Shown: positions 24,545 to 62,921, numbered from the stretch's first letter. The stretch is DNA of 64,000 nt from Eubacteriales bacterium (GCA_045544255.1 JAZPYP010000007.1:10300-74299), one strand, 5' to 3'. Numbers and translations: made by a program. The notes: generated from the letters alone by a model not told the origin.

Positions 24545-24566
24545 TATTCATTTTGGAATTCACTTG

Positions 24567-24683: not shown

Positions 24684-24712
24684 TTGACAATTATAGTAAT
24701 ATAAATTAAAAT
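24684..24712 (+). promoter_or_regulatory. rnf operon promoter
   Basis: TTGACA-N17-TAAAAT. Confidence 0.6.
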
Positions 24713-24776
24713 TTCTATTATATAATGGGTTGTTGTGTGGTTATAAGCAGATAGCCCAAAGAAAGGTGAAAGAAGA

Positions 24777-29491: not shown

Positions 29492-29511
29492 AGCAAGGAA
29501 AGGAGAAAAGA

Positions 29512-30345: not shown

Positions 30346-30734
30346 TAGAGAATAATTCTTCAAAAAAGCGCTATTGGCGCAATGATATTTTGCTGATCGG
30401 CGGTATTTTGCTGGCGGCGGCAATCGGCGGGCTCTGCCTTCTTCTTTTTCGAGGGCAGGGGGCGGCGGTAGAAGTGCGGATCGATGGAAAGCTTTATGGC
30501 ACCTATTCACTTTCGGAGGATCGCATAGAAGAGATCCGCACCGGAGAGGATCAACTGAATCGCTTGGTGATCCGCGATGGAAAAGCATCGGTAGATCTGG
30601 CCACCTGCCCCGATGGTATCTGCGCCGCTCATCACCCGATCTCCAGAGAAGGGGAGAGCATTATCTGCCTTCCTCATCGGGTGGTGGTCGCAGTGGTGAA
30701 AGAAGAGAAGAACGGCGCGGATATAATAGTTTAA
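30342..30734 (+). CDS. NusG domain II-containing membrane-anchored protein
   Basis: ATCPDGICAAH...IICLPHRVVV motif. Confidence 0.88.
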   Translation: MIENNSSKKRYWRNDILLIGGILLAAAIGGLCLLLFRGQGAAVEVRIDGKLYGTYSLSEDRIEEIRTGEDQLNRLVIRDGKASVDLATCPDGICAAHHPISREGESIICLPHRVVVAVVKEEKNGADIIV

Positions 30735-30749
30735 TTTGGGAGAAGACGA

Positions 30750-31259
30750 TTGATGAAAAGCAAGGCGAAGTTAACTGCCTTTTTGGGGCTGTGCACAGCG
30801 CTGGCCTTAGTTCTGGCCTATGCCGAGGCGATCCTGCCGCCCCTCTTTCCGGCGGTGCCGGGCATCAAGATGGGGCTGCCGAATATTATTATAATATTTC
30901 TGCTTTACCGCAAAGGCCCGAAGGCTGCGGCGGCGGTATCCCTCTTGCGGATCTTGCTTGCTACCATGCTTTTTGGCAATGTGATGGCGCTTTTCTATAG
31001 CCTTGCAGGCGGCGCTTTGAGCTTTTTGGTGATGCTTCTTCTGAAGAAAATCAATGGATTTTCTGCCGTTGGCGTTAGTGTGGCAGGGGCGGTGAGCCAT
31101 AATCTTGGCCAAATTTTAGTGGCGATGCTCTTATTGGAAACCATGGAGCTTGGCTATTATATGGTGGTGCTTACCGTTACCGGCTCTATCGCAGGGGTGC
31201 TGATCGGCCTTTGCGGCGGGGCCCTGATTCGAAAATTGCCGAATACCCTATTAAAATAG
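30750..31259 (+). CDS. Gx transporter family protein (often annotated heptaprenyl diphosphate synthase component I)
   Basis: PGIKMGLPN, YSLAGG and GAVSHNLGQ motifs. Confidence 0.88.
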   Translation: MMKSKAKLTAFLGLCTALALVLAYAEAILPPLFPAVPGIKMGLPNIIIIFLLYRKGPKAAAAVSLLRILLATMLFGNVMALFYSLAGGALSFLVMLLLKKINGFSAVGVSVAGAVSHNLGQILVAMLLLETMELGYYMVVLTVTGSIAGVLIGLCGGALIRKLPNTLLK

Positions 31260-31373
31260 TATATACCCGCTATGCGAAATCTGCATAGTGGGTATTGTAT
31301 TTTTTATTGACAGACAGTGCAAAATAATATAGAATAAAATTAATGTAAAATATAAAATAGGAGAGTATGTGTT

Positions 31374-32351
31374 ATGAAAAGATTCTTAGCAATTTCCCTC
31401 TGTGTTCTTTTGGCTCTTTCTACCCTTCTGATGGGCGGATGCGCCAAGGAAGAAGCGCTGAAATTCGGCGCAGGTGTTTATGTGGGTGCTCCCGCTACTG
31501 CTGATGCTACCGCAGATAAAGAAGGTACCGGCGAGTTTGCCGCTACTGTTGCGGCAGTTACTGTTGATGCCGATGGCAAGATTGTGGCTTGCGCGCTGGA
31601 TACCATGAGCAGCGCAGTGAAGTTCACTGCTGATGGCAAGGCCATCGCTAACCAAGAGTTCAAAACCAAATATGAGCTTGGCAAGGATTATAATATGGTT
31701 GCTTATGGCAATGCCAAGAAGGAATGGTTTGAGCAGGCAGATGCTTTTGAGGGCGTTGTTGCCGGCAAAACTCTTGAAGAGGTAAAGGCTTTGGTTGCCG
31801 AAGGCAATAAGGGGACCGACGATGTGGTTGAAGCAGGCTGCACCATTATGATCAATGAGTTTGTTGGTGCAATCGAGAAGGCTTATAATGCTGCCGCAGA
31901 ATCCGAGGTTACTGCCGAGAATACTTTGAAGGTAACGGTTGCTACCGAGCAGACCTGCACCGATGCCACCGCTGATAAGAATGGCTCCAATAAGGTTGCC
32001 AATTATTTCTTTGCCGCCGCATTGGATGCCGATGGCAAGGTGGTTGCCGCTGCCAGCGATTGCGTTGAGGTGGAATTCACCTTCGATACCAAGGGCAAGG
32101 CTACTCTTGATACCACCAAAGCAGTAAAGACCAAGAAGGAGCAAGGCTCCGATTATGGTATGGTTGCTTATGGCGGCGCTACCAAAGAATGGTTCGAGCA
32201 GGCTGCTGCCTTCGATGCAAACTGCATTGGTAAGACCGGCGAAGAGATTGCCAAGCTTCAGGGCGAAGATGGCAAGGGTGTTGAAGCGCTGCAAACTGCA
32301 GGCTGCACCATCTATGTAACCGGCTTTGTTAAGGCCGCTTCCAAGATCTGA
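31374..32351 (+). CDS. Lipoprotein with two internally repeated FMN-binding-like domains
   Basis: MGGC lipobox; duplicated KTK.E.G.DY.MVAYG...EWFEQA..F and AGCTI; lies between Gx and apbE. Confidence 0.75.
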   Translation: MKRFLAISLCVLLALSTLLMGGCAKEEALKFGAGVYVGAPATADATADKEGTGEFAATVAAVTVDADGKIVACALDTMSSAVKFTADGKAIANQEFKTKYELGKDYNMVAYGNAKKEWFEQADAFEGVVAGKTLEEVKALVAEGNKGTDDVVEAGCTIMINEFVGAIEKAYNAAAESEVTAENTLKVTVATEQTCTDATADKNGSNKVANYFFAAALDADGKVVAAASDCVEVEFTFDTKGKATLDTTKAVKTKKEQGSDYGMVAYGGATKEWFEQAAAFDANCIGKTGEEIAKLQGEDGKGVEALQTAGCTIYVTGFVKAASKI

Positions 32352-32370
32352 AAAAATCTGAAGATAGGAT

Positions 32371-32398
32371 AAAACGGGAGGCGTGCCTCCCGTTTTTC
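32371..32398 (+). terminator. Terminator-like hairpin
   Basis: AAAACGGGAGGC-GT-GCCTCCCGTTTTT. Confidence 0.65.
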
Positions 32399-32406
32399 TT
32401 CAATGA

Positions 32407-33453
32407 ATGATGAAAAGAAGAATTTTTTGTATGGCGCTGGCGGTGATTTTGCTGCTGGGCAATCTATCCGGTTGCGCCGCGATGAAAAAGCAAAAATACA
32501 GCGCTTATTCCTTTGATTATTTTGATACTGCCTCTACCATTACCGGCTATGCAGAAAGCAAAGAGGAATTTGATCAGGTGGCTGATGAGATCTTGGCCAT
32601 GCTGGAGGAATATCATCAGCTTTATTCCATCTACCATCGCTTTGATGGAATTGAAAATCTTTGCACTGTTAATGAATTGGCAGATGGTGCGCACCGCAAG
32701 GTGAAGGTAGACCAAAAGATTATTGATCTATTGCTTTATGCAAAAGAAATGTATGAAAAAACCGATGGTGTTTTGAATGTTGCCATGGGGAGCGTGCTCT
32801 CTATCTGGCATGATCATCGCTCCATCGGAATGGATGCGCCGGAAGAGGCTTCCCTGCCTTCCATGCAGATCCTTTGGGAGGCCGCAAGGCATACCGATAT
32901 TAATAATATTGAAATTGATGAAAAAGCGTCTACTGTTTATATCATCGATGCGCTCACCACTATAGATGTGGGCGCTATTGCCAAGGGCTATGCCACCGAG
33001 AGAATTGCCCGATCCTTGGAGGAGCAGGGAATCGAGGGTTATGTGCTCAATATTGGCGGCAATGTGCGCACGATTGGGCAAAAGCCCGATGGCGAGCTTT
33101 GGACGATTGGTATTGAGAATCCCCAAGGCGGCGATCATCTTGCTTATATGGAGCTTGGGGGGCAATCCCTTGTAACCAGCGGATCCTATCAGCGGTATTA
33201 TACCGTTGATGGCAAGCGCTATCATCATATTATCCACCCCGATACCCTGATGCCCGCCGAAGGCTTTTTATCGGTTTCGGTGATCAGCCAAGATTCCGGC
33301 CTTGCCGATGCCCTCTCCACCGCTCTTTTCTGCATGCCCTTGAAGGAGGGGCAGAAAATGGTGGCGGAGCTTCCCGATGCAGAGGTTATGTGGGTGCTGG
33401 AGGATGGCAGCCAAATTACCTCCTCCGGCTGGGATTTCTATTTAAAGCAATAA
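32407..33453 (+). CDS. apbE: FAD:protein FMN transferase
   Basis: LSGC lipobox; DVGAIAKGY, NIGGNV, TSGSYQRY, HHIIHP and ADALSTA motifs. Confidence 0.95.
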   Translation: MMKRRIFCMALAVILLLGNLSGCAAMKKQKYSAYSFDYFDTASTITGYAESKEEFDQVADEILAMLEEYHQLYSIYHRFDGIENLCTVNELADGAHRKVKVDQKIIDLLLYAKEMYEKTDGVLNVAMGSVLSIWHDHRSIGMDAPEEASLPSMQILWEAARHTDINNIEIDEKASTVYIIDALTTIDVGAIAKGYATERIARSLEEQGIEGYVLNIGGNVRTIGQKPDGELWTIGIENPQGGDHLAYMELGGQSLVTSGSYQRYYTVDGKRYHHIIHPDTLMPAEGFLSVSVISQDSGLADALSTALFCMPLKEGQKMVAELPDAEVMWVLEDGSQITSSGWDFYLKQ

Positions 33454-49858: not shown

Positions 49859-49932
49859 ATATCCACCCTTACTGAAATTCGTTATTGCAAATATTGAATT
49901 TGGGTGCGGCTTTTATACCGCACCCATTTTTA

Positions 49933-51243
49933 TCAGAATAGTATTATCAAGAACTGTGACACGAGAACGACAGCTATCAAGGCTATCGGGTACGTTGCCG
50001 CATAAGCCGCCGCAACGTCTTCCGTTTTTGCAACACCGATAAGTGTTCCGAGTGCGGGAGTACTCGTCATACCGCCCGTGATCGCGCCGAGGTTGTTGAG
50101 AAGCGAAAGCTTCAGAACATACTTTGCAAACAGGAATCCTATGATCATAGGAACGACCGTCATGATAACGCCGTATACAAAATACATAGGGTCAAAGCAG
50201 TTAACGAACTCTGCGCCGCCCGCAATACCTGCACCTGCAAGGAAAAGAACGAGTCCAAGCTCACGGAAAAGCTTAAGCGTTGTTTCAAGAGGCATCATTG
50301 AGATCTTTCCAAATCTTCCGAAGTGACCTATCACAAGCGCTACAAGTAAGCAACCGCCCGTTGTTGTAAGCGAAAAGCAAGTTCCGTCAAGTCCCTTAGC
50401 AGAAAGCGGTATCTTGATCGCGCCTATAAATGTACCAAGAACTGCTGCAAAAGAGAACGCCGCAAAGCCCATGTGGTCGATGTGGAGAAGCTTTAACGCT
50501 TTTTTTGCCTTTTCATCTTTATTAGCAGGAGCGATAGAGATAGCGGCTCTTTCCTTGTCCATATCAGCTTTAACGATCTTAGGAATAAGCTGAACAAAAA
50601 GAACAACACCTATTACGCCGAAAATATACGAAATTCCGTGACCGACTGAAACTATATCCTCAAGCCTGCTTGCAATTTCAGGTGTAGCGGCTACATCCGC
50701 GACCGTTGCTTTAGCGGCTGAAAACGCAGGAGTAGACGTAAGAGATCCTGAAAGAAGACCTACTATCATCGCAACGAACTCATCAAGATTCTCAGCACCT
50801 GAGCCAAATCCGATACCCTTGCCGATGAAAATACAAGCTACGGCTGAAAGTCCGCCGGCGAGAATGATGATAAGACCCAAGAGCACGTAAGATTTAAAGT
50901 TCTTCTTCATATTTGCAAAGAACTTCGGACCTGCAATAAATCCAACTGATGTGACGAACAGGATAAGACCTAAGCTTTCAATGATCTTAAGAGCCTTTTT
51001 AATGTATTCGACCTTTATCGGTTCACCGTCAGCAATTACTTTTGTAATAGTAAGCTGATCTGCAAGCGGTGAAAACAGCAATGCACCGAACACAAGTGCT
51101 ATAATGAACACGCCTGCATCGCCGAGCGAGACACCTTTGATAGTTATACGTCCGAGAGCATATCCTACAAAAAGAATACCAAACAGACAAAACAGTAAAA
51201 ATGAGATTTCCTTAATAGGAATTACTCCACCAAACAAATTCAT
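49933..51243 (-). CDS. AspT/YidE/YbjL (AAEx) family transporter, candidate succinate exporter
   Basis: Duplicated GSLTSTPAF and GGMTSTPAL motifs, YAATYP; no TrkA-C domains. Confidence 0.85.
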   Translation of the reverse strand: MNLFGGVIPIKEISFLLFCLFGILFVGYALGRITIKGVSLGDAGVFIIALVFGALLFSPLADQLTITKVIADGEPIKVEYIKKALKIIESLGLILFVTSVGFIAGPKFFANMKKNFKSYVLLGLIIILAGGLSAVACIFIGKGIGFGSGAENLDEFVAMIVGLLSGSLTSTPAFSAAKATVADVAATPEIASRLEDIVSVGHGISYIFGVIGVVLFVQLIPKIVKADMDKERAAISIAPANKDEKAKKALKLLHIDHMGFAAFSFAAVLGTFIGAIKIPLSAKGLDGTCFSLTTTGGCLLVALVIGHFGRFGKISMMPLETTLKLFRELGLVLFLAGAGIAGGAEFVNCFDPMYFVYGVIMTVVPMIIGFLFAKYVLKLSLLNNLGAITGGMTSTPALGTLIGVAKTEDVAAAYAATYPIALIAVVLVSQFLIILF

Positions 51244-51270
51244 TTTAAAATTACCTCTTTTTCGAATATA

Positions 51271-52866
51271 TTACTTTCTTCTGTAATCCGGCAAAAGCTT
51301 GGGAGATACAGCTTCCGTTTCGATACCCGCATCGGCAATTTCCTTTTCAAAGCTGTCGATGTGTGCAAGTGTGAGCTTACCTACACTTACGTTTTTGCAT
51401 TTAGCTGCCGCATTTTTACCCGCGCTTCTGCCAAACACAATTATGTCCAAAAGTGAGTTACCCATAAGGCGATTTCTTCCGTGAATACCGCCTACCGCCT
51501 CACCTGCTACGAACAGATTTTCCACATTCGTAGTCATGCAGTCGGCATTTATATCAAGTCCGCCATTCTGATAGTGGAGCGTGGGATAAACGAGGATCGG
51601 CTCTTTACGTATGTCAATGCCGTATTTACCGAACATTCTCATCATTGCGGGAATTCTCGCCTCGATCGTTCCCTCTCCGCCTATCTTTTCGATCATAGGC
51701 GTATCAAGCCATACTGCAAGACCGTTTTCAGTATCAACGCCGTTGCCTCTTGTGGAGCATTCTCTGATGATAGATGCCGCTGAAACGTCACGCGTTTCAA
51801 GCGGATGCATAAATGCCTCGCCCTTTACATTTATGAGCTTTGCGCCAAGTGAACGAACCTTTTCTGTAACGAGCGCACCGAATATCTGTTCAGGATAAGC
51901 AGCGCCCGTGGGGTGATATTGGAGCGTATCTGCATAAAGCAGCTTTGCGCCTACTCTGTAACCGAGCACAAGACCGTCAGCCGTTGCACCGTAGTGGTTT
52001 GACGTGGGGAAGCCCTGATAATGCATTCTTCCTGCACCGCCCGTTGCAATAATAACAGTTTTTGCTCTTGCAACGAGAAGCTCCTGCGTTTCCATATTCA
52101 TAAGCACCGCACCTGCTGCGTTGCCGTTTTCATCAAGAATAAGCTCTACTGCAGAGGTAAAGTCTACAACGGGAATGCCTCTGTTAAGGACCTCATCACG
52201 CAGCGTACGCATAATTTCAGCGCCTGAATAGTCCTTTGCCGCATGCATACGCTTGCGGGATGTACCGCCTCCGTGCGTAGTTACCATATTGCCGTCAGCG
52301 TCCTTGTCAAATTCAACGCCGAGATCGTTAAGCCACTGAATAGCCTCAGGAGCGTCGCACACGAGCTTTGACAAAAGCTCTCTTTTTGCCGCATAGTGAC
52401 CGCCGCCGAACGCATCTACAAAGTGTATTGCAGGTGAGTCGTTTGCCTTGTCCGCAGCCTGAATACCGCCCTCAGCCATCATCGTATTTGCATCGCCTAT
52501 ACGCAGCTTTGTTACGATCATAACATCAGCGCCCGCCTCGTGCGCTTCTATCGCCGCAGACGAGCCTGCGCCGCCGCCGCCTATAACGAGAACGTCAACA
52601 TCATAGTTGGGATTTTCAAGATCAACTGCATCAGATGTTATACGGCTGTGTGCCTGAAGCATCTGTGCAAGCTCAACGGGAACCTTTTCGCCCTTGTTCG
52701 GACCTATCTTAAGCTGAGCAAATTCATCTGTTTTATAGTCGGGGTGATATGCTTTAAGAAGATCTTCCTTTTGCTGCGCCGTCATTCTTGCCGGCTCGAG
52801 CTTGATATTTGCCTCTCTTGCGGCTTCAACTGCCTTAAGAGATTCTGAAAATTTTTCCGGATACAT
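51271..52866 (-). CDS. Fumarate reductase/succinate dehydrogenase-type flavoprotein, soluble
   Basis: GGGGAG, QYHPTG, TEKVR, ETRDV, LHYQNGG and HGRNRLMGNSL motifs. Confidence 0.9.
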   Translation of the reverse strand: MYPEKFSESLKAVEAAREANIKLEPARMTAQQKEDLLKAYHPDYKTDEFAQLKIGPNKGEKVPVELAQMLQAHSRITSDAVDLENPNYDVDVLVIGGGGAGSSAAIEAHEAGADVMIVTKLRIGDANTMMAEGGIQAADKANDSPAIHFVDAFGGGHYAAKRELLSKLVCDAPEAIQWLNDLGVEFDKDADGNMVTTHGGGTSRKRMHAAKDYSGAEIMRTLRDEVLNRGIPVVDFTSAVELILDENGNAAGAVLMNMETQELLVARAKTVIIATGGAGRMHYQGFPTSNHYGATADGLVLGYRVGAKLLYADTLQYHPTGAAYPEQIFGALVTEKVRSLGAKLINVKGEAFMHPLETRDVSAASIIRECSTRGNGVDTENGLAVWLDTPMIEKIGGEGTIEARIPAMMRMFGKYGIDIRKEPILVYPTLHYQNGGLDINADCMTTNVENLFVAGEAVGGIHGRNRLMGNSLLDIIVFGRSAGKNAAAKCKNVSVGKLTLAHIDSFEKEIADAGIETEAVSPKLLPDYRRK

Positions 52867-52878
52867 ATTTTCCCCTCC

Positions 52879-53553
52879 TTATTTCTCTATTTCTCTGTTG
52901 TTGTAAAGCTCTTTGATCTCGTCAATGGGCTTTTGCATAAGTGCTTCGATAAGCTCTGCAAATGTGCCGTCCTTGATTTCACGTACACGGTCCTCAAGGT
53001 GAGCAGACTTCGGAGCAAGATATTTACCGTTAAGTCTGCGTGCAAGCATCGCTACCTGTGGATGTGAGATGCCTGCAGGACAGCGTGAGGAGCATACACC
53101 GCACATTACGCAGTCAAACGATTCCTCAGCGCACTTTTCATACTCGCCTCTCTGAGCGTATGCAATATACTGCATAACGTTAAGCTCCTGTGTGCAGCTC
53201 TTTGTGCAGGCATTGCATCCGATGCAGGCGTATATTTCAGGGTAAAGCTGCATCATTATCTGTTCTGTGGGCTTTACCTTTTCAATATCGTACACTTGCT
53301 TTACAAGTGGGAAAAACGGAAGTGTAGCTATGTACATATTTTCCTGCACCTTCGTCTGACAAGCAAGGCACGCCTTTAATTCTCTGTCGCCCTTTATTCT
53401 GTATATCGTAGCGCATGCGCCGCAAAATCCGTTACGGCAGCCGCACCCTCTTACCAGCTGATAGCCGGCATATTCCATAGCGCTCATTATAGTAAGATTT
53501 TCAGGAACGCTGTACTTTTTTCCGAAAAGAAATATATTAACCATATTTTCCAT
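52879..53553 (-). CDS. FrdB/SdhB-like Fe-S subunit
   Basis: GCRNGFCGAC 2Fe-2S motif plus two 4Fe-4S motifs; start after AAGGAGG. Confidence 0.88.
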   Translation of the reverse strand: MENMVNIFLFGKKYSVPENLTIMSAMEYAGYQLVRGCGCRNGFCGACATIYRIKGDRELKACLACQTKVQENMYIATLPFFPLVKQVYDIEKVKPTEQIMMQLYPEIYACIGCNACTKSCTQELNVMQYIAYAQRGEYEKCAEESFDCVMCGVCSSRCPAGISHPQVAMLARRLNGKYLAPKSAHLEDRVREIKDGTFAELIEALMQKPIDEIKELYNNREIEK

Positions 53554-53566
53554 CTTATTTTCCTCC

Positions 53567-54403
53567 TTAATATTCATCCGGCAGCTCTTCAAGCTCATCG
53601 CAACGGAAAACGGGTCCGTCCTTGCAAACGTACTTTGAACCGATATTGCATCTGCCGCATTTACCGACACCGCACTTCATACGCAGCTCCATCGTCGTAT
53701 AGACCTGTGTTTTATCATATCCCATAGAGATCAATCCCTCAAGGGTAAACTTGATCATTATGGGCGGACCGCATATAATAACTGTTTTGTCTGTGGGAAA
53801 ATCAAGCTCTTTTACATAATTGGGAACAAATCCTACGTGACCGTCCCAGCCTTCCTGTTCTCTGTCTATGGTAAGATGAACGTCTATACCGTCGTCCTTT
53901 ACCCACTCAGAGATTATTTCATCATAATCAACAAGATCGTCCTTACTTCTTGAACCGTAAACTATATCGATCTTGCCGTATTTATCTCTATAATGTCTGC
54001 AATAGTTGATCACAGAACGCAACGGCGCAAGACCGATACCGCCTGCAACAAACAAAAGATCCTTACCTGCGAACACATCATCGACAGGAAACGGCTTTCC
54101 GTAAGGGCCTCTGATCGTTATCATCTGACCTACCTCTGCCTGATGGAGCCATTCCGTAACGCAACCGCATTTTTTAATGGAAAACTCCATATATTCGGTA
54201 TTTGTAGGAGATGAGGTTATTGAAAACATAGCCTCTCCGACTGCAGGTATTGAAAGCATTGCACACTGACCGGGCTTATGGTCAAATGCCTTTTTACCGT
54301 CGGGCGTTACAACACGGAACGTCTTAACATCCGGTGTATCTATTCTCACGTCGGTTATAACTCCGACCTTCGGGATAAGTACTTCTTCCATATTATTCAT
54401 CAT
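53567..54403 (-). CDS. FlxA/AsrB-like FAD/NAD(P)-binding subunit
   Basis: RGPYG, AGGIGLAP, CGPPIM and MKCGVGKCGRC motifs. Confidence 0.9.
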   Translation of the reverse strand: MMNNMEEVLIPKVGVITDVRIDTPDVKTFRVVTPDGKKAFDHKPGQCAMLSIPAVGEAMFSITSSPTNTEYMEFSIKKCGCVTEWLHQAEVGQMITIRGPYGKPFPVDDVFAGKDLLFVAGGIGLAPLRSVINYCRHYRDKYGKIDIVYGSRSKDDLVDYDEIISEWVKDDGIDVHLTIDREQEGWDGHVGFVPNYVKELDFPTDKTVIICGPPIMIKFTLEGLISMGYDKTQVYTTMELRMKCGVGKCGRCNIGSKYVCKDGPVFRCDELEELPDEY

Positions 54404-55424
54404 CCTTTCCTGAAAGTCCCTTCATTACCTTGACGATATTCATTGATACGGGACATTTTGAAAGACACCTGCCGCATCCTACGCATCCGAAAACACCGTC
54501 GTTATTCGTGGGATAGTATACCAGCTTGTGCATAAATCTCTGACGGAAGCGCTCAAGCTGTGAAACTCTGTTGTTTCCGTGAGCCATACGGGTAAATTCC
54601 GAATACATACAGGAATCCCAGCAGCGATAACGGATAACGCCGTGGCCTGTATCATAATCCCTTATATCGTAGCATTGGCACGTAGGACAAACGAACGTAC
54701 ACGTTCCGCAGCCTATGCAAGTTCTCGAAAGATCTGCCCATTCGGGACTGTCGAAGAATTTCGCCGTCTTATCCTTGCCGAAATCCTTCGTTTTAAGATC
54801 TGCCAAGGGGAGCCTTTTCATTATTTCAGCGGTTTTTGCCTTCTGCTCACACACAGCCTTATCGTCGCATTCCTCTGTGAGAGATTCGATGACAGCCATA
54901 AGAGATGCACCCTTTTCGGTGTTAGCATTGAAATATATATCCGTATCAGTCTTCCAGCACGTGATATCACCTGCGGGAGATGCTGCATCTATTCCGAATG
55001 ATGAGCAAAAGCACGTTTCAGCAGGACGTGTGCAAGCCATTGAAATTATCGTTGAATGAGCGCGTCTGTTTGCATAGTAGCTGTCACGCGGCTCTGAAAG
55101 AAATACGCTGTCAAGTATATCAAAGCTCTTAACATCACACGCTCTGACACCGAACACTACGAAATCCTCGTTTTCCTCTCTTGTATCGATAACCTCTATC
55201 TCTTTGCCCTGCACCTTGAACTGCATAAGATCTTCCATCTGGGGAAAGAAGAAATCCTTAGCCGATCTGTTTGTATTAAGGCAATCACTGAGCTGAACGC
55301 CCTGAGACCACTTTTTATAATCAGCACCGCTGTCTGTATTTACAGGCAGATACAATGCTTGCGCTTGTGCTATTTTGGCAAAAATGCTGTCAAGAGCAGT
55401 CAATGAACATTTACGCATACTCAT
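54393..55424 (-). CDS. FlxB/AsrA-like 4Fe-4S protein
   Basis: GVRACD, CFC, CIGCGTCTFVCPTCQC, RCWDSC and CVGCGRC motifs. Confidence 0.88.
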   Translation of the reverse strand: MSMRKCSLTALDSIFAKIAQAQALYLPVNTDSGADYKKWSQGVQLSDCLNTNRSAKDFFFPQMEDLMQFKVQGKEIEVIDTREENEDFVVFGVRACDVKSFDILDSVFLSEPRDSYYANRRAHSTIISMACTRPAETCFCSSFGIDAASPAGDITCWKTDTDIYFNANTEKGASLMAVIESLTEECDDKAVCEQKAKTAEIMKRLPLADLKTKDFGKDKTAKFFDSPEWADLSRTCIGCGTCTFVCPTCQCYDIRDYDTGHGVIRYRCWDSCMYSEFTRMAHGNNRVSQLERFRQRFMHKLVYYPTNNDGVFGCVGCGRCLSKCPVSMNIVKVMKGLSGKDDE

Positions 55425-56407
55425 TCCCCTTTCTTAACTGCATCATTAGGCTCGATATCATCAGTTGTGTAATTCACAAGCGGAGCGCGGCTTCCAACCG
55501 TTTCTCCTGCCTGATAATCGCCGTAGAAGCTGTTTATATCCTTAATAAATTTTCTGTTGAGCAAATGCAAAGGTATGTTCTGAGGGCATACTCTTGAGCA
55601 TTCGCCGCAGTCCGTGCATCTTCCTGCAACGTGGAAGGCGCGTATGATGTGGAACATTTTTTCTTCAAAGCTGTCCTCTGTCGGATTCTTCGTTTCCGCG
55701 CCCGATTTTGGATTGTCAAATACGCATTTTTCGCACGTACAAGCAGGACATATATTACGGCATGCATTGCATCTGATACAGCGTGAAAGCTCACCCTGCC
55801 AGAATTCAAATCGCTCATCCTCTGTCATATTTTCGAGCTTTTCTACCTCGTCAAAGCGCTTGCTGTCAAGCACCTGACCGTCATCGCCCAAAAGCTCGTC
55901 ATACGCAACGTGCTTTTTACTTTTGCAGTTAATGCATCTTTCAGCTAATATATCCTCAAACGCGATCGTTTTCACACCGTCATAAAGCGTTTCTACCTTA
56001 ACGTCCGTGCCGCTTTCTTCAATCGACAGTATTCCGTCGCCCGCAAGAGTCTTCAGCTTTGTCACATCTGCCATACCCTCGCAGGGAATGCCTATTGCAT
56101 ATACATTTTCTCTGTCAAAGCGATGCTCTGTCAGAAGCTGATTGAAGCTGTATGTATCGCAGGGCTTAAGAAATACAAGGAGTTTTCCGCCCTTTCTTTT
56201 TTCTGATACGAGATACTTGGAGAAGTTTGCACCGCAAAATCCGTTATAAACGAAATTGTTCTTTATATCATCGCAATCGGTGAATACGGCGGGGGCAATA
56301 TCGTAATCAAATTCGCCCTTTTTCCAGCAGAGCACACGGTCAACAGCGCCGCTTTTGAGCATTTCGCACGCCTTTTCCACCAATGCATCACGGGTTATTT
56401 TTTGCAT
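55421..56407 (-). CDS. FlxC-like 4Fe-4S protein (FrhB/FdhB-related)
   Basis: LKPCD, RCIRCNACRNICPACTC and HVAGRCTDCGEC motifs. Confidence 0.85.
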   Translation of the reverse strand: MQKITRDALVEKACEMLKSGAVDRVLCWKKGEFDYDIAPAVFTDCDDIKNNFVYNGFCGANFSKYLVSEKRKGGKLLVFLKPCDTYSFNQLLTEHRFDRENVYAIGIPCEGMADVTKLKTLAGDGILSIEESGTDVKVETLYDGVKTIAFEDILAERCINCKSKKHVAYDELLGDDGQVLDSKRFDEVEKLENMTEDERFEFWQGELSRCIRCNACRNICPACTCEKCVFDNPKSGAETKNPTEDSFEEKMFHIIRAFHVAGRCTDCGECSRVCPQNIPLHLLNRKFIKDINSFYGDYQAGETVGSRAPLVNYTTDDIEPNDAVKKGE

Positions 56408-56832
56408 CGTAGATCCTCCAATCTCTTGTTTTCTCCGAGAGCTGCAACTGCGGAAGTGAAATCATTCATAGTTGCGGCAAACTTTGCGCCCTCTGCAGCA
56501 GATACCCATTCAAGACGGATCCTTTCCTTCTCAATACCGAGATAATTTAGCATCGAGAACAAAAGCGCCATTCTTCTTCTTGTATAATAATTGCCTGATG
56601 TATAGTGGCAGTCGCCGGGGTGGCATCCGCATATAATAACTCCGTCCGCACCTCTTTGAAACGCACGAAGGATGAATATCGGATTTACTCTGCAAGAGCA
56701 CGGCACCTTGATTATCTTTACGTTTTCAGGATAAGCAAGTCTGTTATTACCCGCAAGATCCGCACCTGCATAAGAGCACCAGTTGCAGCAAAAAGCAACT
56801 ATCTTCGGCTTGAATTCGTTATTTATTTGCAT
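56395..56832 (-). CDS. mvhD: MvhD/FlxD 2Fe-2S subunit
   Basis: FCCNWCSYAGAD, PCSCRV, GCHPGDCHY and WVSAAEG motifs. Confidence 0.92.
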   Translation of the reverse strand: MQINNEFKPKIVAFCCNWCSYAGADLAGNNRLAYPENVKIIKVPCSCRVNPIFILRAFQRGADGVIICGCHPGDCHYTSGNYYTRRRMALLFSMLNYLGIEKERIRLEWVSAAEGAKFAATMNDFTSAVAALGENKRLEDLRCKK

Positions 56833-58817
56833 ATCGCATCTACCTCCGCAATTATTTGCGCGCTTGCGAAGCCCTTAAGGTCCATTGCCCCCGAAGGACA
56901 CGCAACGGTACAAGCACCGCAGCCCTGACATACCGCTTCGTTTACCGTAGCTATGCGTCTTATCGCAGTCGTTCTGTCGGGCATACGGAATTCCTTATCA
57001 ATGTAGGTAATAGCACCGTAAGGACATACCCTTTCACACGATGAGCAGCCGTTACACATAAGCTCATTCGGCTGTGCAACGCACGGGTTGCCTGTGAGCT
57101 TATCCTTTGCCAGAAGTCCTATGACCTTTGCAGCTGCCGCAGATGCCTGAGAAACTGTTTCGGGAATATCCTTAGGACCTTGGCAGGTACCCGACAGGAA
57201 TACGCCTGCCGTCGGGCTTTCAACGGGACGGAGCTTGGGGTGTGCTTCGGTAAAGAAATCGTTCGTATCCATACTTGCTGTAAGCATTGTAGCTATGGAA
57301 CGGGCTGATTTGTCAGGCTCTATCGCCGCAGCGAGAACCACAAGATCTGCCTGTATATTAAGCTGCTTGTTTGCAAGAAGGTCTGACGCTCTGACATTCA
57401 GCTTGTCGCCCTCGGGGAACACCTTTCCTACCATGCCCTTGATATAGTGTACTCCGTATTCCTCTACGGCACGGCGATAAAATTCATCAAACGCCTTACC
57501 CGGTGTACGCACATCAATGTAGAACACATATACCTCTGTATCGGGATATTTGTCTCTCGTCAGCATTGCATGCTTTGCAGTATACATACAACATATCTTC
57601 GAGCAATATTCTTTGCCCTTTTCAGCGCATGCAGCACATCTTGAGCCAACGCACTGAACGAAAACTATCGTATGCGGATGCTTTCCGTCTGACGGACGGA
57701 GCAGCTTGCCCGCCGTAGGACCTGCGGCGTTTGTCAGACGCTCAAATTCAAGCGACGTTATTACATCCTTGGATTGATTGTATGCATACTCGTCGAATTT
57801 ATCCATGCTTATGGGATTAAATCCCGTAGCTGCAACGATAGCGCCGTAGCTTTCTTCTATTATCTCATCCTTTTGGGTGTAGTCGATGGCTCCTGCCGTA
57901 CATACCTTTGAGCATATACCGCATTTACCTGTTTTAAGCATTGTACAGTAATTGGGGTCTATCGTTGCTACCTTCGGAACTGCCTGTGCGAACGGAATAT
58001 ACACTGCACGGCGGTTATCCATACCCATATTGAATTCGTTGGGAACCTTCTTTTGAGGACACTTTTCGGTGCATATACCGCAGCCTGTGCAAATATCCTC
58101 TTTTACGTATCTTGCCTTCTTTCTTATCTTGACCTTGAAGTTACCGACAAAGCCGCCAACCTCTTCGACCTCGCTGTAAGAAAATATTCTGATATTCTCA
58201 TTCTGCGCCACATCAACCATTTTAGGTGTAAGAATACACGCTGCACAGTCAAGCGTCGGGAACGTTTTATCAAGCTGAGCCATTTTACCGCCGATCGTGG
58301 GCTTCTTTTCCACAATATCAACGGGGAAGCCTGCCTCTGCAATATCAAGAGCGGTCTGAATACCTGCAATACCGCCGCCTATTACAAGAGCGCGCTTTGT
58401 TACGGGGCTTTCGCCGGGCATAAGCGGAGCATTAAGATTGACCTTTGCAACTGCCGCTTTACCTAAAATTATCGCTTTTTCCGTACCCGTAGCCATATCC
58501 TTATGTACCCACGAGCACTGCTCGCGGATATTGGCTATCTCCACCATATACGGATTAAGACCTGCCGCTGAAGCAGTCTTACGGAATGTTGCCTCGTGCA
58601 TACGCGGTGAGCAGGAGCAAACAACGATGCCTGTGAGCTTATGCTCAGTTATCGCCTGCTTTATTATATCCTGACCCGCCTGTGAGCACATATACTGATA
58701 GTTGGTGGAAAAGACAACGCCCGGCTCGTTTTTCAACGCGTCTGACACCGCCTGTACATCTACAGTACCTGCAATATTACTGCCGCACCAACATACAAAT
58801 ACGCCGATTCTCTGCAT
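56823..58817 (-). CDS. hdrA: Heterodisulfide reductase subunit A
   Basis: RIGVFVCWCG, CSPRMHE, NIREQC, DKTFPTLDC, QCVGSR, YCSKICC and GPKDIP motifs. Confidence 0.95.
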   Translation of the reverse strand: MQRIGVFVCWCGSNIAGTVDVQAVSDALKNEPGVVFSTNYQYMCSQAGQDIIKQAITEHKLTGIVVCSCSPRMHEATFRKTASAAGLNPYMVEIANIREQCSWVHKDMATGTEKAIILGKAAVAKVNLNAPLMPGESPVTKRALVIGGGIAGIQTALDIAEAGFPVDIVEKKPTIGGKMAQLDKTFPTLDCAACILTPKMVDVAQNENIRIFSYSEVEEVGGFVGNFKVKIRKKARYVKEDICTGCGICTEKCPQKKVPNEFNMGMDNRRAVYIPFAQAVPKVATIDPNYCTMLKTGKCGICSKVCTAGAIDYTQKDEIIEESYGAIVAATGFNPISMDKFDEYAYNQSKDVITSLEFERLTNAAGPTAGKLLRPSDGKHPHTIVFVQCVGSRCAACAEKGKEYCSKICCMYTAKHAMLTRDKYPDTEVYVFYIDVRTPGKAFDEFYRRAVEEYGVHYIKGMVGKVFPEGDKLNVRASDLLANKQLNIQADLVVLAAAIEPDKSARSIATMLTASMDTNDFFTEAHPKLRPVESPTAGVFLSGTCQGPKDIPETVSQASAAAAKVIGLLAKDKLTGNPCVAQPNELMCNGCSSCERVCPYGAITYIDKEFRMPDRTTAIRRIATVNEAVCQGCGACTVACPSGAMDLKGFASAQIIAEVDAICK

Positions 58818-58831
58818 TTTGTCTTTTCTCC

Positions 58832-59230
58832 TTACTTACTGTATTTTCTGAGTGCGCTTACTATCGCCTGCTGAGGAATATCCTCGTCAAGCAACGCAGG
58901 AATATCATCTGCTGTAAGATGATTTGCACCCTGCTTGCGAATTACCGCAAGTCTTACCGATTCAACCAGCTTTGCCGGCTCGACTCCTCTGGGACATCTG
59001 TCAACACACGCAAAGCAGGTAAGACACTTGTAAAGTGACTTTGATTGCATAAGCGGCTCTATATCGCCGTTTTCAACCATATATACGAACTGATGCGGAT
59101 GATATTCCATCTCATCAAAAGCGGGGCATGTAGCGGTGCATTTACCGCATCTCATACACTTTTTCGGATTTACGCCGCTGGAACGGATGATCTCATCTCT
59201 TATCTTTGCAGTTTCCTTATTCATTTTCAT
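58832..59230 (-). CDS. hdrC: Heterodisulfide reductase subunit C-like protein
   Basis: CMRCGKCTATCP and CLTCFACVDRCP motifs. Confidence 0.88.
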   Translation of the reverse strand: MKMNKETAKIRDEIIRSSGVNPKKCMRCGKCTATCPAFDEMEYHPHQFVYMVENGDIEPLMQSKSLYKCLTCFACVDRCPRGVEPAKLVESVRLAVIRKQGANHLTADDIPALLDEDIPQQAIVSALRKYSK

Positions 59231-60008
59231 CCCCCTTTACGCCGAGAGCCTGCGCCAAAAGCTCCGTAAAGTATACCACCTTGACGTCGGATGCATTCTT
59301 TTCAAGATTATATTTGCACAAAGGACATGCAGTAACCACGATATCCGCGCCTGCCTGCTTTGCCGACTCAAGAACGCTTACGCTCTTTTTCTTTGCCGAA
59401 TCAGCATCCTCAAGCGCTATGTATCCGCCGCAGCATTCATTTCTGTAAGGATAAATAACAGGCTCTGCACCGAGCGCCGTTATAAGATCCTCGATTATTC
59501 TGGGGTTTTCGGGATCGTCCATCTGCATTACGGAATTGGGACGGAGCAAAAGACATCCGTAATATGCGCCGATCTTCACACCCTTAAGAGAATTTACCAC
59601 CTTTTGCGCTACGTTATCAAAGCCGACCTCGTCGCGCAGATATTCAAGATAGTGCATAACACGCGCTGTGCCGTGATATGTCTCATCCTTAAGATAGTTG
59701 TTCACATGGGACGCAAATTCGCTGTCATTACGCATTGCATTATCAGTTTGCTTTATTACGTTATGACACGCAGAGCAGACCGTAAGCAGTATTTCATTAT
59801 TTTTTTCTGCATATGCAAGTGCTCTTACGGATGAAAGCTTCGTTGCAATTTCATCCTTTGCGGTCGTAAATACGCCGCCGCAGCACTGCCAGTTTTCTAT
59901 TTCTTCAAGCGAAAAGCCAAGTGCGCTTGCACTGTCTTTAGCATATTTATCCAGATCCTTCGCCTTGGTTCTCAACGTGCAGCCGGGAAAGTATGCCACT
60001 TTTTTCAT
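59217..60008 (-). CDS. hdrB: Heterodisulfide reductase subunit B-like protein
   Basis: YFPGC, WQCCGG, CSAC, YYGCLLLRP, ECCGG and CPLC (two CCG domains). Confidence 0.92.
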   Translation of the reverse strand: MKKVAYFPGCTLRTKAKDLDKYAKDSASALGFSLEEIENWQCCGGVFTTAKDEIATKLSSVRALAYAEKNNEILLTVCSACHNVIKQTDNAMRNDSEFASHVNNYLKDETYHGTARVMHYLEYLRDEVGFDNVAQKVVNSLKGVKIGAYYGCLLLRPNSVMQMDDPENPRIIEDLITALGAEPVIYPYRNECCGGYIALEDADSAKKKSVSVLESAKQAGADIVVTACPLCKYNLEKNASDVKVVYFTELLAQALGVKGDENE

Positions 60009-60094
60009 TTGTATGACCGTTCCTTTCTTTCAAATTGCCGTATTAACGGATTTCCGAAACCGAAAACCCGTTAATAAGCCTTGATAATCTTTAA

Positions 60095-61471
60095 TTAAAC
60101 CATCTGCTCAGGATGGAATACCTCATCGAATTTTTCCTCTGTCAAAAAGCCGAGCTGAACGCAGGCTTCTTTAAGGGATATATTATCTTTGTAAGCCTTT
60201 TTCGCAGTCTTCGCGGCGTTTTCGTATCCGATATAAGGATTGAGTGCCGTAACGAGCATCAAGGAGTTGTGCAGATTGTGATGCATTTTTTCCTTGTTTG
60301 CGGTTATACCGACAGCGCAATTCTTGTTAAAGGATACTATCGCTTCAGCAAGAAGCCTTGCTGACTGCAAAAAGTTATATGCGCAAACGGGCATAAATAC
60401 ATTAAGCTCAAAGTTGCCCTGCGATGCCGCCATACCGACAGCAACATCGTTTCCCATTACCTGAACGGCAACCATAGTCACCGCCTCACACTGCGTGGGA
60501 TTTACCTTACCCGGCATTATTGACGAGCCGGGCTCGTTTTCGGGAATAAATATCTCTCCCAAGCCGTCACGAGGACCGCTGGCAAGCCAACGCACGTCAT
60601 TTGCTATCTTCATCATATCGCACGCAAGCGCCTTTACTGCGCCGTGTGCAAATACTATTTCATCCTTTGAGGTAAGAGAATGGAACTTATTTGCAGCAGT
60701 TACGAACGGCTTTCCTGTAAGATCAGCCACCTTCTTTGCCACAAGCTCACCAAAGCCCTTGGGGGCATTGAGTCCTGTGCCTACTGCCGTACCGCCTAGA
60801 GCAAGCTCACACAACGGCTTTACAGCCATCTTAAGAAGCTCCACATCTCTTTCAAGGCTTGAACGCCAGCCGCTTATCTCCTGGCTGAATTTTATGGGAG
60901 TTGCATCCTGTAAATGCGTTCTTCCGCTTTTTACTATGCCTTCATTTTCCTCTTCAAGACGCTTGAAGGTATCAATAAGAGTCTGTGCGGCGGGAATGAG
61001 CTTATCTTCAAGTGCAAGAACAGCCGCAATATGCATTGCCGTAGGAAAAGTGTCATTCGAGGATTGGCTCATATTAACATCGTCATTGGGATGAAGCAGC
61101 TTTGCATCAGCTATCTGATTGCCCCTGTTTGCAATAACCTCGTTTGCATTCATATTGGACTGTGTGCCCGAGCCGGTCTGCCACACCACAAGCGGAAAAT
61201 TATCATAAAGCTTGCCGCTTATGATCTCATCACATGCAGCACATATCGCTTTTACCTTTTCCTGTGTCATTTTTTCAGGACGAAGCTCACCGTTTGCCTG
61301 CGAAGCTGCTTTTTTCAGTATACCGAATGCATACGTTATCTCGCGGGGCATCGTTTCGATACCAACGCCGATCTCAAAGTTCTGACAGCTTCTTTGCGTC
61401 TGAGCAGCCCACAGCTTATCTGCCGGAACCTTCATTTCGCCCATAGAATCATGCTCTATACGGTATTCCAT
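60095..61471 (-). CDS. fumC: Class II fumarate hydratase
   Basis: GSSIMPGKVNP, QSSNDTFPT and GRTHLQDA motifs. Confidence 0.96.
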   Translation of the reverse strand: MEYRIEHDSMGEMKVPADKLWAAQTQRSCQNFEIGVGIETMPREITYAFGILKKAASQANGELRPEKMTQEKVKAICAACDEIISGKLYDNFPLVVWQTGSGTQSNMNANEVIANRGNQIADAKLLHPNDDVNMSQSSNDTFPTAMHIAAVLALEDKLIPAAQTLIDTFKRLEEENEGIVKSGRTHLQDATPIKFSQEISGWRSSLERDVELLKMAVKPLCELALGGTAVGTGLNAPKGFGELVAKKVADLTGKPFVTAANKFHSLTSKDEIVFAHGAVKALACDMMKIANDVRWLASGPRDGLGEIFIPENEPGSSIMPGKVNPTQCEAVTMVAVQVMGNDVAVGMAASQGNFELNVFMPVCAYNFLQSARLLAEAIVSFNKNCAVGITANKEKMHHNLHNSLMLVTALNPYIGYENAAKTAKKAYKDNISLKEACVQLGFLTEEKFDEVFHPEQMV

Positions 61472-61489
61472 AATTATATTCTCCCAAAA

Positions 61490-62437
61490 TTATATATTTG
61501 TCGCCTTTATTATAGCCTTAAGTGTATCTGCACTGTGACGGAGCTTTGCTATTTCATCATCGTTCAAAGGCAGATTTACCTTGCTGCGTATGCCTTTGTT
61601 TCCTACTATGCTGAGCGTACTGAGACAAACGTCGTCAATACCGTACTCACCGTGCATCATCGTTGAGACTGTCATAGTTGTATCCACACCGCTGAGCAAG
61701 CACTTGCATATGTAGCACACTGCAGTGGAAACGGCGTAGAAGGTAGCACCCTTGCGCGCGATTATCTCGCCGCCCGACTTCTGAACGTAATGTACTGCGT
61801 AATCGTAATCAAATTCGGGAAGAAGCTTTCCGTTCTTGCCCATAAATGAATTATGGCAGTCAGCTATATTGACGTTTGATACGTTGGCAAGAGACCACGG
61901 AATAAACGATGAGTCGCCGTGCTCGCCCAGAACATAGGCGTGTGCGTTATTCTGGCTGACAGAATAAAACTCTGACATTCTTGCGCGAAGGCGCGCAGTA
62001 TCAAGTATTGTACCCGAACCGATAATACGGCTTTCGGGGATACCTGAGCGCTTGCAAAATGCATATGTAAGAATATCAACAGGATTGCTTACCAGCAGAT
62101 ATACCGCATCAGGTGCAGCATGTGTGATCTCCTTCATGATCTGCTTGAGAATGTCGATATTCGTCTGAGCAAGCTCAAGGCGGGACTGTCCTGCCTTTCT
62201 CGCAACACCGGAGGTGATTATTACAATGTCTGAATTTGCGGCATCCTCGTAAGAACCTGCATTAACAGTACAAGGATTGCAGAACGGCAGACACTGTTTG
62301 ATGTCAAGCGCTTCGCCGACAGCTTTCTCGTTGTTGATGTCGATCATTACTATCTCAGATGTAAGACCCATAACAGCCAGTGTGTAGGAAATCGTTGCGC
62401 CAACGCTTCCGCTTCCGATAATTGTGATTTTGTTCAT
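61490..62437 (-). CDS. LDH/MDH-family dehydrogenase, probably malate dehydrogenase
   Basis: GSGSVG, SNPVD, LDTAR and GEHGDS motifs; specificity loop GVARKAG has Arg. Confidence 0.85.
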   Translation of the reverse strand: MNKITIIGSGSVGATISYTLAVMGLTSEIVMIDINNEKAVGEALDIKQCLPFCNPCTVNAGSYEDAANSDIVIITSGVARKAGQSRLELAQTNIDILKQIMKEITHAAPDAVYLLVSNPVDILTYAFCKRSGIPESRIIGSGTILDTARLRARMSEFYSVSQNNAHAYVLGEHGDSSFIPWSLANVSNVNIADCHNSFMGKNGKLLPEFDYDYAVHYVQKSGGEIIARKGATFYAVSTAVCYICKCLLSGVDTTMTVSTMMHGEYGIDDVCLSTLSIVGNKGIRSKVNLPLNDDEIAKLRHSADTLKAIIKATNI

Positions 62438-62702
62438 AATTATATCCTCTTTTATTTTTATTCGCCTTTTACAAGCGGAATAACTTCTTTCACACCAAAT
62501 TACAGTATACCACACGCACAGCTTCTTTTCAATATATTCAACGCTTGCAAATTAAGGAAGCCGACATAACATAAACCGCACAATCGAAATGAAAAAATTC
62601 ACATCCGCAATTAATCGCATCTATTATAATATATGCGCACGCTTTTTTCAAGGGATTTTGACAAAAAAAACAGAAAATATGGTGTACATTTTTTTAAATA
62701 AA

Positions 62703-62737
62703 ATGTGATTTTGTGAACCATTTTCACAAAATCACAT
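62703..62737. repeat. Perfect 15-bp inverted repeat with 5-nt spacer
   Basis: ATGTGATTTTGTGAA-CCATT-TTCACAAAATCACAT. Confidence 0.85.
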
Positions 62738-62921
62738 CACGCTCTTTCTTTTGTCGTCAAACAAATCATTTTTATATCACAACCTTTAAAAATAAAGAAA
62801 GTCACTTGAAATCTATCCTTTCATATGATATAATCTTTTTGGGCACTATATCTGCGCACCCACACAATAGCATCATAAAAGGAATTTGTTTTTAACCAAA
62901 AATCAAAGGAGATCGGTCTTA

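Follow-up and report, generated by a model that had tools for sequence, protein, structure and literature searches.

How might a fumarate reductase without a membrane anchor receive its electrons, and could energy be conserved when it does? This question is raised by an operon in a 64,000-nucleotide stretch of DNA from an Eubacteriales bacterium (GCA_045544255.1, JAZPYP010000007.1:10300-74299), which was analysed at its full length and is called the window here. At positions 49933-62437 of the window, 12 co-oriented open reading frames (ORFs) lie on the minus strand in the order mdh, fumC, hdrB, hdrC, hdrA, mvhD/flxD, flxC, flxB, flxA, frdB, frdA and a gene for an AAEx permease. The operon probably turns oxaloacetate into exported succinate by means of an anchor-less fumarate reductase wired to an Hdr-Flx module. 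The reading that we favour, and which we consider rather probable, goes further: NADH would drive a quinone-free reduction of fumarate together with the co-reduction of ferredoxin, and the ferredoxin would then be used by Rnf.

An initial reading of the DNA made from the sequence alone had described 12 co-oriented, tightly spaced genes of these families. This description was borne out at exact coordinates, with Pfam and NCBIfam (the latter used with its cut-offs) in agreement for every gene. Neighbouring genes are separated by -14 to +86 nt, with starts chosen by ribosome-binding sites and orthologs; five junctions overlap (hdrB/hdrC, hdrA/mvhD, mvhD/flxC, flxC/flxB and flxB/flxA), and the spacers flxA-frdB, frdB-frdA and frdA-AAEx measure 13, 12 and 27 nt, respectively. 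The arrangement is not a product of chance, because every related locus whose sequence extends far enough has the genes in this order.

Fumarate is the substrate to which the residues of FrdA point. When FrdA is aligned with E. coli FrdA and SdhA and with M. smegmatis Sdh1, Asn127 takes the place of the histidine to which FAD is covalently attached in those enzymes, and the FAD of FrdA is predicted to be non-covalent. Absence of this histidine favours fumarate reduction over succinate oxidation among Frd/Sdh enzymes. The fumarate-site residues H318, T320, E335, R338, R359, H431 and R466 are all retained when FrdA is aligned to E. coli FrdA; the dicarboxylate site thus has its His-Pro-Thr hinge, Glu/Arg pair and proton-donor Arg, as well as the His and Arg in the C-terminal part of the FAD domain. 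Asn127 and all of these fumarate-site residues are invariant in 54/54 aligned sequences.

The AlphaFold model of FrdA (predicted local distance difference test, pLDDT, 77; predicted template modelling score, pTM, 0.81) has soluble flavocytochrome c3 fumarate reductases as its closest structures (Z ~30, root-mean-square deviation 2.9 Å over ~381 residues), and it matches E. coli FrdA with a Z of 28.7 over 418 residues. The N-terminal extension of 87 aa is conserved and confidently folded in the model, although structural searches hardly cover residues 1-67; Pfam has no match, even at E <= 10, for the first 90 or the last 44 residues. Succ_DH_flav_C, the C-terminal domain of complex-II flavoproteins, is not reported in FrdA by Pfam. 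The best NCBIfam match is TfrA, at 334.5 bits against a cut-off of 718, with the model matched only to position 425 of 546.

The iron-sulfur subunit FrdB has the Cys pattern of a plant-type [2Fe-2S] cluster followed by two CxxCxxCxxxC motifs. As both motifs are complete, FrdB probably holds two [4Fe-4S] clusters and not a [3Fe-4S] cluster; Cys motifs of the all-[4Fe-4S] type also occur in TfrB and in type-E enzymes. The N-terminal part of FrdB matches TfrB positions 10-99 and dhsB, its mean column identity is 90% (54 sequences), and neither Pfam nor the Cys pattern reveals a CCG domain in it. Single internal stops occur in three loci from metagenome-assembled genomes (MAGs), namely in frdB of L004 (9314-9988), frdA of L036 (10001-11596) and flxA of L074. 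They may be assembly errors or recent pseudogenes, and these loci were left out of the corresponding frdB, frdA and flxA alignments.

The seven genes between fumC and frdB carry the complete feature sets of HdrABC and FlxABCD. HdrA is full-length: its residues 3-661 align to HdrA from the solved Mvh-Hdr complex (5odc_A) with E = 4e-206, and Pfam finds its FAD/Rossmann domain along with inserted and C-terminal ferredoxin domains. HdrB contains exactly 10 Cys, at 10/42/43/78/81 and 152/192/193/228/231, which form two complete CCG motifs and are invariant in 55 sequences. It matches the solved HdrB 8rvv_B (E = 1e-34), and its top NCBIfam matches, both below cut-off, are SdhE of methylmenaquinol:fumarate reductase (158.6 bits) and HdrB (148.2 bits). 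The 8 Cys of HdrC make up two [4Fe-4S] motifs of the form CxxCxxCxxxC and are likewise invariant. FlxA has FAD, NAD(P)H and [2Fe-2S] sites, its NAD(P)H site being the only one in the operon, and FlxD corresponds to MvhD. Both other subunits are iron-sulfur proteins: the FlxB-like protein matches the solved sulfhydrogenase I beta subunit 9nez_B (E = 2e-43), and the FlxC-like protein has 19 Cys, including two CxxCxxCxxxC motifs. Moreover, methanogen TfrB is matched piecewise in NCBIfam by three proteins of the operon, at positions 10-99 by FrdB, 132-220 by HdrC and 262-487 by HdrB. Because successive TfrB segments are thus taken up by FrdB, HdrC and HdrB, HdrBC and FrdBA together resemble a split thiol:fumarate reductase that has its CCG module in common with HdrA.

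To survey the conservation of the operon, as the sequence-only reading had proposed, one genome per species was scanned. At least 593 relatives of FrdA were found, and the best 80 loci (78-94% identity), all of them from gut, rumen or faecal Clostridia MAGs, were analysed for linkage. The nine-gene core hdrB-hdrC-hdrA-mvhD-flxC-flxB-flxA-frdB-frdA is colinear in all 53 loci with at least 9.6 kb upstream of frdA (53/53); fumC accompanies it in 52 of these, and mdh together with fumC in 48. Counted gene by gene wherever the contig reaches, linkage is complete for frdB (74/74), flxA (68/68), flxB (65/65), flxC (63/63), mvhD (59/59), hdrA (55/55), hdrC (54/54) and hdrB (54/54). The core is also colinear in 12/12 more distant carriers (62-78% FrdA identity), in which mdh, fumC and AAEx are variable. 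FrdBA was therefore never apart from Hdr-Flx in the 65 loci examined (53 + 12).

The initial description of the operon as rare did not survive this survey. In an even sample of the class, a full-length FrdA ortholog (63-92% identity) is present in 91 of 399 scored genomes and 54 of 218 genera, two further sampled genomes having been left unscored. Given that 91/399 sampled genomes carry the ortholog and that relatives of FrdA occur in at least 593 species-level genomes, the operon is not rare.

The source genome (2.17 Mb, 85 contigs, 97.3% complete) contains one FrdA and one Hdr/Flx set, in which HdrB is the only CCG protein. The earlier claim that Frd has no membrane anchor agrees with what we found: the operon has no anchor gene, and the genome has no match to Sdh_cyt or Fumarate_red_C (Fumarate_red_D was not searched). 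No UbiA-family prenyltransferase (UbiA/MenA) was found in the genome either, in a search whose control was positive in 14/14 reference genomes. With neither an anchor match nor the UbiA family, the organism is without evident means for a quinol-dependent fumarate reductase. Of the disulfide substrates known for HdrABC, DsrC in bacteria and CoM-S-S-CoB in methanogens, DsrC (PF04358) was not found in the genome (CoM/CoB biosynthesis was not searched). The genome does hold machinery by which reduced ferredoxin could be used to build an ion gradient and make ATP. In the window, an Rnf cluster (24777-30345) is immediately preceded by an F-type ATP synthase (18332-24544) and followed by an ApbE flavin transferase, and the genome has two Rnf clusters in all, as well as two [FeFe] hydrogenase homologs and a GTP-dependent phosphoenolpyruvate carboxykinase (PEPCK); an ATP-dependent PEPCK was not found in it. 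A split of NADH electrons between fumarate and ferredoxin is consistent with the lack of anchors, UbiA/MenA and DsrC and with the presence of Rnf and ATP synthase in the window.

In the mechanism that we propose, an LDH-type malate dehydrogenase with Arg102 and a class II fumarase would convert oxaloacetate to malate and then to fumarate; both the gene identities and this pathway logic, which the sequence-only reading had carried through to succinate and its export, hold. Fumarate would be reduced by FrdAB, which has no anchor and would carry a non-covalent FAD besides one [2Fe-2S] and two [4Fe-4S] clusters. Lacking an NADH site, FrdAB would be fed by the co-encoded FlxABCD-HdrABC, in a putative physical complex. 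NADH would enter at FlxA, and its electrons would pass through FlxB/FlxC and MvhD to the flavin of HdrA, where the pair would be split. One electron would go uphill through the ferredoxin domains of HdrA to ferredoxin, and the other downhill through HdrC, HdrB, FrdB and the FAD of FrdA to fumarate. Overall, 2 NADH + oxidised ferredoxin + fumarate would yield 2 NAD+ + reduced ferredoxin + succinate. Rnf would re-oxidise the ferredoxin and build the ion gradient for ATP synthase, and the AAEx permease would export the succinate. Since Rnf and ATP synthase would harvest the reduced ferredoxin, fumarate reduction would conserve energy without quinones. With the potentials given in the accessible part of PMC5861303 (+33 mV for fumarate/succinate, -320 mV for NAD), NADH-driven fumarate reduction with co-reduction of ferredoxin is allowed. 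The reverse reaction, an oxidation of succinate by confurcation, was also considered and was rejected because of these potentials and of the missing covalent-FAD histidine.

Bifurcation is what distinguishes this proposal from a plain NAD(P)H:fumarate oxidoreductase, in which Hdr-Flx would be a mere wire to FrdAB and ferredoxin would not be reduced. Such a wire seems unlikely to us. It draws on the facts that ferredoxin reduction is itself a prediction and that FrdAB needs a donor module anyway, for which FlxA offers the sole NAD(P)H site; however, HdrA retains the full architecture of the solved bifurcating enzyme with both ferredoxin domains, seven additional subunits would be a costly wire, and ~350 mV would be wasted in an organism with two Rnf clusters. 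The intact and invariant CCG motifs of HdrB bring in another scheme, with two enzymes and a diffusible thiol: Flx-Hdr would bifurcate to ferredoxin and to a disulfide at HdrB, and the thiol would then reduce fumarate as in the thiol:fumarate reductase of methanogens. TfrA is indeed the best family match of FrdA, and the accessible text of PMC11636981 describes tubeworm-symbiont models that permit a DsrC-like carrier. Yet FrdB lacks the CCG domain that the oxidation of a thiol would require, HdrB itself is the only CCG protein in the Hdr set of the genome, DsrC was not found there, and the TfrA and TfrB scores lie far below cut-off, which together make this scheme improbable.

We give least credence to a third possibility, namely that the substrate of the FrdA-like flavoprotein is not fumarate (it might, for example, be an L-aspartate oxidase or a different enoate reductase), or that reduced ferredoxin is the direct electron donor of FrdAB, without the help of Hdr-Flx. 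FrdA is the sole FAD_binding_2 protein in the genome, and structural searches show that NadB, urocanate reductase and ketosteroid dehydrogenases share its fold. Against this, the NadB model scores FrdA at 264 bits where its cut-off is 453, all fumarate-site residues are retained, fumC and mdh are co-encoded in 48/53 loci, and the linkage of FrdBA to Hdr-Flx holds in 65/65 loci. This last possibility is therefore very improbable.

Several points weigh against the bifurcating NADH:fumarate reductase that we propose. The literature searched, which has limited coverage, gives no direct evidence for a Frd-Hdr/Flx complex or for ferredoxin reduction, and no enzyme assay. The intact CCG sites of HdrB would suit some thiol/disulfide substrate equally, the sequence of FlxA is compatible with NADH or NADPH, and no Rex N-domain was found in the genome. 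A search with FrdB for longer proteins returned 24 matches, including ~11 FlxA-FrdB (485-548 aa) and ~6 FrdB-FrdA forms, none with a CCG domain. We did not retain these database fusions as support for a physical association: in the five sequences read the junctions differ and resemble spacer read-through, frameshift or deletion, so that they count for little. Metatranscriptome data are compatible with expression of the operon. Four runs, all belonging to one animal-gut study, contain 26-72% of the words sampled from the stretch, and their contigs cover all 12 genes and bridge junctions such as frdB/flxA, flxB/flxC, hdrA/hdrC/hdrB and fumC/mdh. The flanks are covered too, and such contigs, which agree with expression and do not prove it, show neither transcript, strand nor level and may include DNA carry-over.

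The product of mdh, the first gene of the operon, passes the lactate dehydrogenase (LDH) models NF000824 (347.3 vs 339) and TIGR01771 (312.6 vs 303.55), it stays below the cut-offs of the malate dehydrogenase (MDH) models, and its best solved relatives are all LDHs. An Arg is aligned to Gln102 of these relatives. At position 102, LDH has Gln and MDH has Arg, and because of this residue we assign the operon dehydrogenase as a malate dehydrogenase. Arg stands at this position in 46/47 operon-linked mdh orthologs, the remaining one falling outside the pattern. The protein is the sole LDH/MDH homolog in the genome, and automatic annotation would probably misname it as LDH. As for the second gene, a paralog of the class II fumarase/aspartase family, 61% identical to fumC, lies elsewhere in the source genome (contig C70:46688-48043 of G000).

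At the other end of the operon, the AAEx protein passes the duplication-domain model TIGR01625 (121.8 vs 71.95) and has both Asp-Al_Ex halves, as expected of the family (AspT/YidE/YbjL/SucE type). It differs from that family in being shorter (436 aa as against ~550 aa) and in the central TrkA_C (RCK_C) domains: no TrkA_C domain was reported by Pfam or NCBIfam, and the middle of the full-length models is unmatched. AAEx stands directly 3' of frdA in 54/74 loci with enough downstream DNA. In most of the remaining loci, this place is taken by a conserved protein of ~105 residues with three transmembrane helices (15 aligned; e.g. L065:11625-11936), which has no Pfam match and which the ESM Atlas groups with PQ-loop repeat proteins (score 0.97). 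This PQ-loop-like protein occurs in 21/80 loci, and only 2 of those 21 also have AAEx. The alternation of two unrelated, putative small-solute carriers in one place fits product export. After the PQ-loop-like gene come a Rex-type redox repressor in 4 loci, an [FeFe] hydrogenase in 1 and an ATP-PEPCK in 1, neighbours that fit an NADH-linked succinate branch. A 42%-identical homolog of the PQ-loop-like protein is present elsewhere in the source genome (C3:16707-16991).

How does this operon compare with known systems? For FlxABCD-HdrABC of Desulfovibrio vulgaris, a system treated by Ramos et al. in 2015, the presumed acceptor is reportedly the DsrC disulfide, and a link with ethanol metabolism is reported. 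Our operon resembles that system in its seven subunit families and in the proposed oxidation of NADH with bifurcation to ferredoxin and a high-potential acceptor. In contrast, no DsrC was found here, the acceptor module would be FrdAB, and the gene order is hdrBCA-flxDCBA. With E. coli FrdABCD (1kf6) it has in common the flavoprotein fold, the catalytic residues, including those of the dicarboxylate site, and the [2Fe-2S] N-terminal domain of the iron-sulfur subunit. It differs from FrdABCD and from succinate:quinone oxidoreductase (SQR) in that anchor, UbiA/MenA, covalent-FAD His and Succ_DH_flav_C are missing and a four-Cys motif stands where a [3Fe-4S] cluster is expected; the enzyme is thus outside complex II, which is defined by an anchor with a quinone pool and by a covalent 8-alpha-FAD His.

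The likeness to the thiol:fumarate reductase TfrAB of Methanothermobacter (Heim et al. 1998) lies in FrdA being nearest to the TfrA model and in FrdB, HdrC and HdrB covering successive TfrB segments. Unlike in TfrAB, the CCG domain is on a separate HdrB, and FrdA has an N-terminal extension and is without the last ~120 TfrA-model positions; with TfrA at 334.5 vs 718, FrdB matching only TfrB 10-99 and no fused CCG domains, FrdAB falls outside TfrAB as well. The catalytic half of the operon would therefore work like both complex II and TfrAB while belonging to neither. Anchor-less fumarate reductases embedded genetically in an Hdr module have been described in two other settings. In reductive tricarboxylic acid cycle (rTCA) clusters of tubeworm symbionts and Thioflavicoccus, tfrAB is interleaved with flxABCD-hdrABC, and a joint complex is suggested in the accessible parts of PMC6315080 and PMC11636981; Antarctic Cloacimonadota have clusters of thiol:fumarate reductase (TFR), Hdr and Mvh (PMC8542988). 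Those clusters serve autotrophic CO2 fixation and include korABCD, and in Cloacimonadota the input is the Mvh hydrogenase, whereas the operon described here would serve a fermentative succinate branch and has a putative exporter.

The closest precedent is the 'succinate operon' of Pseudoclostridium thermosuccinogenes (PMC7282089), which matches the frd-flx-hdr arrangement that the sequence-only reading had mentioned for a succinate-producing clostridium. As described in the accessible part of that paper, it contains genes for a fumarate hydratase, for the Flx-Hdr complex (seven genes) and for the fumarate reductase (two genes), plus one for a hypothetical protein as possible succinate exporter. 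Judged by the described locus-tag series, the gene series is the same, as is the proposed mechanism; the two organisms, both Clostridia, also share a GTP-dependent PEPCK. Here, by contrast, mdh is added at the front, and the last gene is a short AAEx permease where the paper speaks of a hypothetical protein. The accessible text assumes ferredoxin reduction 'as proposed previously', citing a 2019 preprint (Koendjbiharie & van Kranenburg, 10.20944/preprints201912.0288.v1), and reports transcript changes and no enzyme assay. A later CRISPR interference (CRISPRi) paper on P. thermosuccinogenes (PMC9044749) did not target these genes. The operon type has been proposed in print since 2019-2020, and the present locus is a clean and complete further example.

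The distribution of the operon also suggests, and does no more than suggest, that it spreads horizontally between families of Clostridia. Four other families have copies of FrdA that are 92, 90, 90 and 89% identical to that of the source genome (G000), whereas their RpoB is only 67, 69, 70 and 71% identical; conversely, no FrdA match was found in a same-genus genome whose RpoB is 91% identical. This comparison, with G133, G292, G269, G300 and G163, uses identities only and no tree. RpoB was used because AtpD (the F-type beta subunit) was unusable as a yardstick, having not been found at E <= 1e-50 in 4/5 genomes.

The features of the locus are collected in the table below. The mdh ATG at 62437 is preceded by a ribosome-binding site; the longest frdB ORF runs into flxA, and the start at 53553 is likelier.

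Table. Positions in the window, strand and description of the operon genes and of the signals at its two ends (aa, amino acids).
Feature	Position	Strand	Description
mdh	61490..62437	-	malate dehydrogenase on LDH-type scaffold, 315 aa; Ldh_1_N + Ldh_1_C
fumC	60095..61471	-	class II fumarate hydratase, 458 aa; TIGR00979 702.6 bits vs cut-off 664.75; Lyase_1 + FumaraseC_C
hdrB	59217..60008	-	CCG-domain subunit, 263 aa; PF02754 x2
hdrC	58832..59230	-	two-[4Fe-4S] subunit, 132 aa; Fer4 dicluster domains, HdrC-family matches
hdrA	56823..58817	-	full-length flavoprotein, bifurcating type, 664 aa; NF040770 HdrA2 785.7 bits
mvhD/flxD	56395..56832	-	145 aa; PF02662 FlpD E = 8e-56; aligns to C-terminal MvhD part of HdrA2
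flxC-like iron-sulfur protein	55421..56407	-	328 aa; Fer4 dicluster domains
flxB-like, sulfhydrogenase-beta/AsrA type	54393..55424	-	343 aa; PF17179 Fer4_22; ShyB, HydB, AsrA models matched
flxA	53567..54403	-	NAD(P)H/FAD-binding + [2Fe-2S] subunit, 278 aa; FAD_binding_6, NAD_binding_1, DHODB_Fe-S_bind; sulfhydrogenase gamma + AsrB models
frdB	52879..53553	-	iron-sulfur subunit, 224 aa; Fer2 + Fer4 dicluster domains
frdA	51271..52866	-	fumarate reductase flavoprotein, 531 aa; FAD_binding_2 at residues 91-472
AAEx permease, short form	49933..51243	-	presumed succinate exporter, 436 aa; PF06826 Asp-Al_Ex x2
promoter-like site TTGAAA-17-TATAAT, 11/12	62651-62623	-	upstream of mdh; consensus pattern match only
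promoter-like site with extended TG, 10/12	62532-62504	-	upstream of mdh; consensus pattern match only
GC-rich hairpin, 9 pairs (7 G-C)	49901..49926	.	between AAEx stop and next gene (nudix); terminator-like scan, T-tail scored only on + strand

The hairpin is likely the end of the operon. Inside the operon, a scan for promoters and terminators gives about as many matches as chance would (promoters 30 against 24.1 expected, terminators 12 against 12.5). A perfect inverted repeat (arms of 15 nt, loop of 5 nt) occupies 62702-62738, about 50 nt upstream of the best promoter-like site, and a T-rich run comes after it. We considered it as a conserved Rex box and rejected it. It contains the half-sites TTGTGAA/TTCACAA with a 5-nt spacer, and a Rex box has a spacing one base shorter; a loose pattern (<=2 mismatches) occurs upstream of 5/34 operons including this one, and the genome has no Rex N-domain match.

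Elsewhere in the window, the region 18001-33453 holds the ATP synthase genes, then rnfCDGEAB and then ApbE, while the second Rnf cluster is on contig C28. In a 736-aa ORF at 19735-21945, a segment of the oligomycin sensitivity-conferring protein (OSCP, delta) shares a reading frame with a complete alpha subunit. The RnfG-like protein, at 384 aa, is long and has two FMN_bind stretches, and a protein of the F420 hydrogenase/dehydrogenase beta family (FrhB/FdhB-like) is encoded in this bacterium at 16761-17945, just upstream of the ATP synthase genes.

What is added here to the published proposal is a core that is invariant and common in gut Clostridia, an LDH-scoring mdh with the residue of an MDH, the AAEx/PQ-loop alternation and a distribution that looks horizontal. 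A further step, which we put forward tentatively as plausible without being probable, is that HdrB has no thiol/disulfide substrate and that its two non-cubane clusters relay electrons directly from HdrC to FrdB. HdrBC and FrdBA would in that case correspond to a TfrAB that is split and fed by NADH, and the complex would be a distinct class of flavin-based bifurcating enzyme; with Rnf, it would amount to quinone-free fumarate respiration in gut Clostridia. The module, which apparently moves horizontally between families of Clostridia, could therefore account for much of the succinate from gut and rumen Clostridia.

The enzyme type has been predicted since 2019-2020, with no purification found in the literature searched. 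If the NADH- and ferredoxin-linked fumarate reductase proposed here is real, it would conserve energy from fumarate reduction with neither quinones nor cytochromes, and bifurcating enzymes of the HdrA family would gain a new acceptor. Moreover, it would explain the formation of succinate by many uncultured Clostridia of the gut and rumen, where succinate is a key cross-feeding metabolite.

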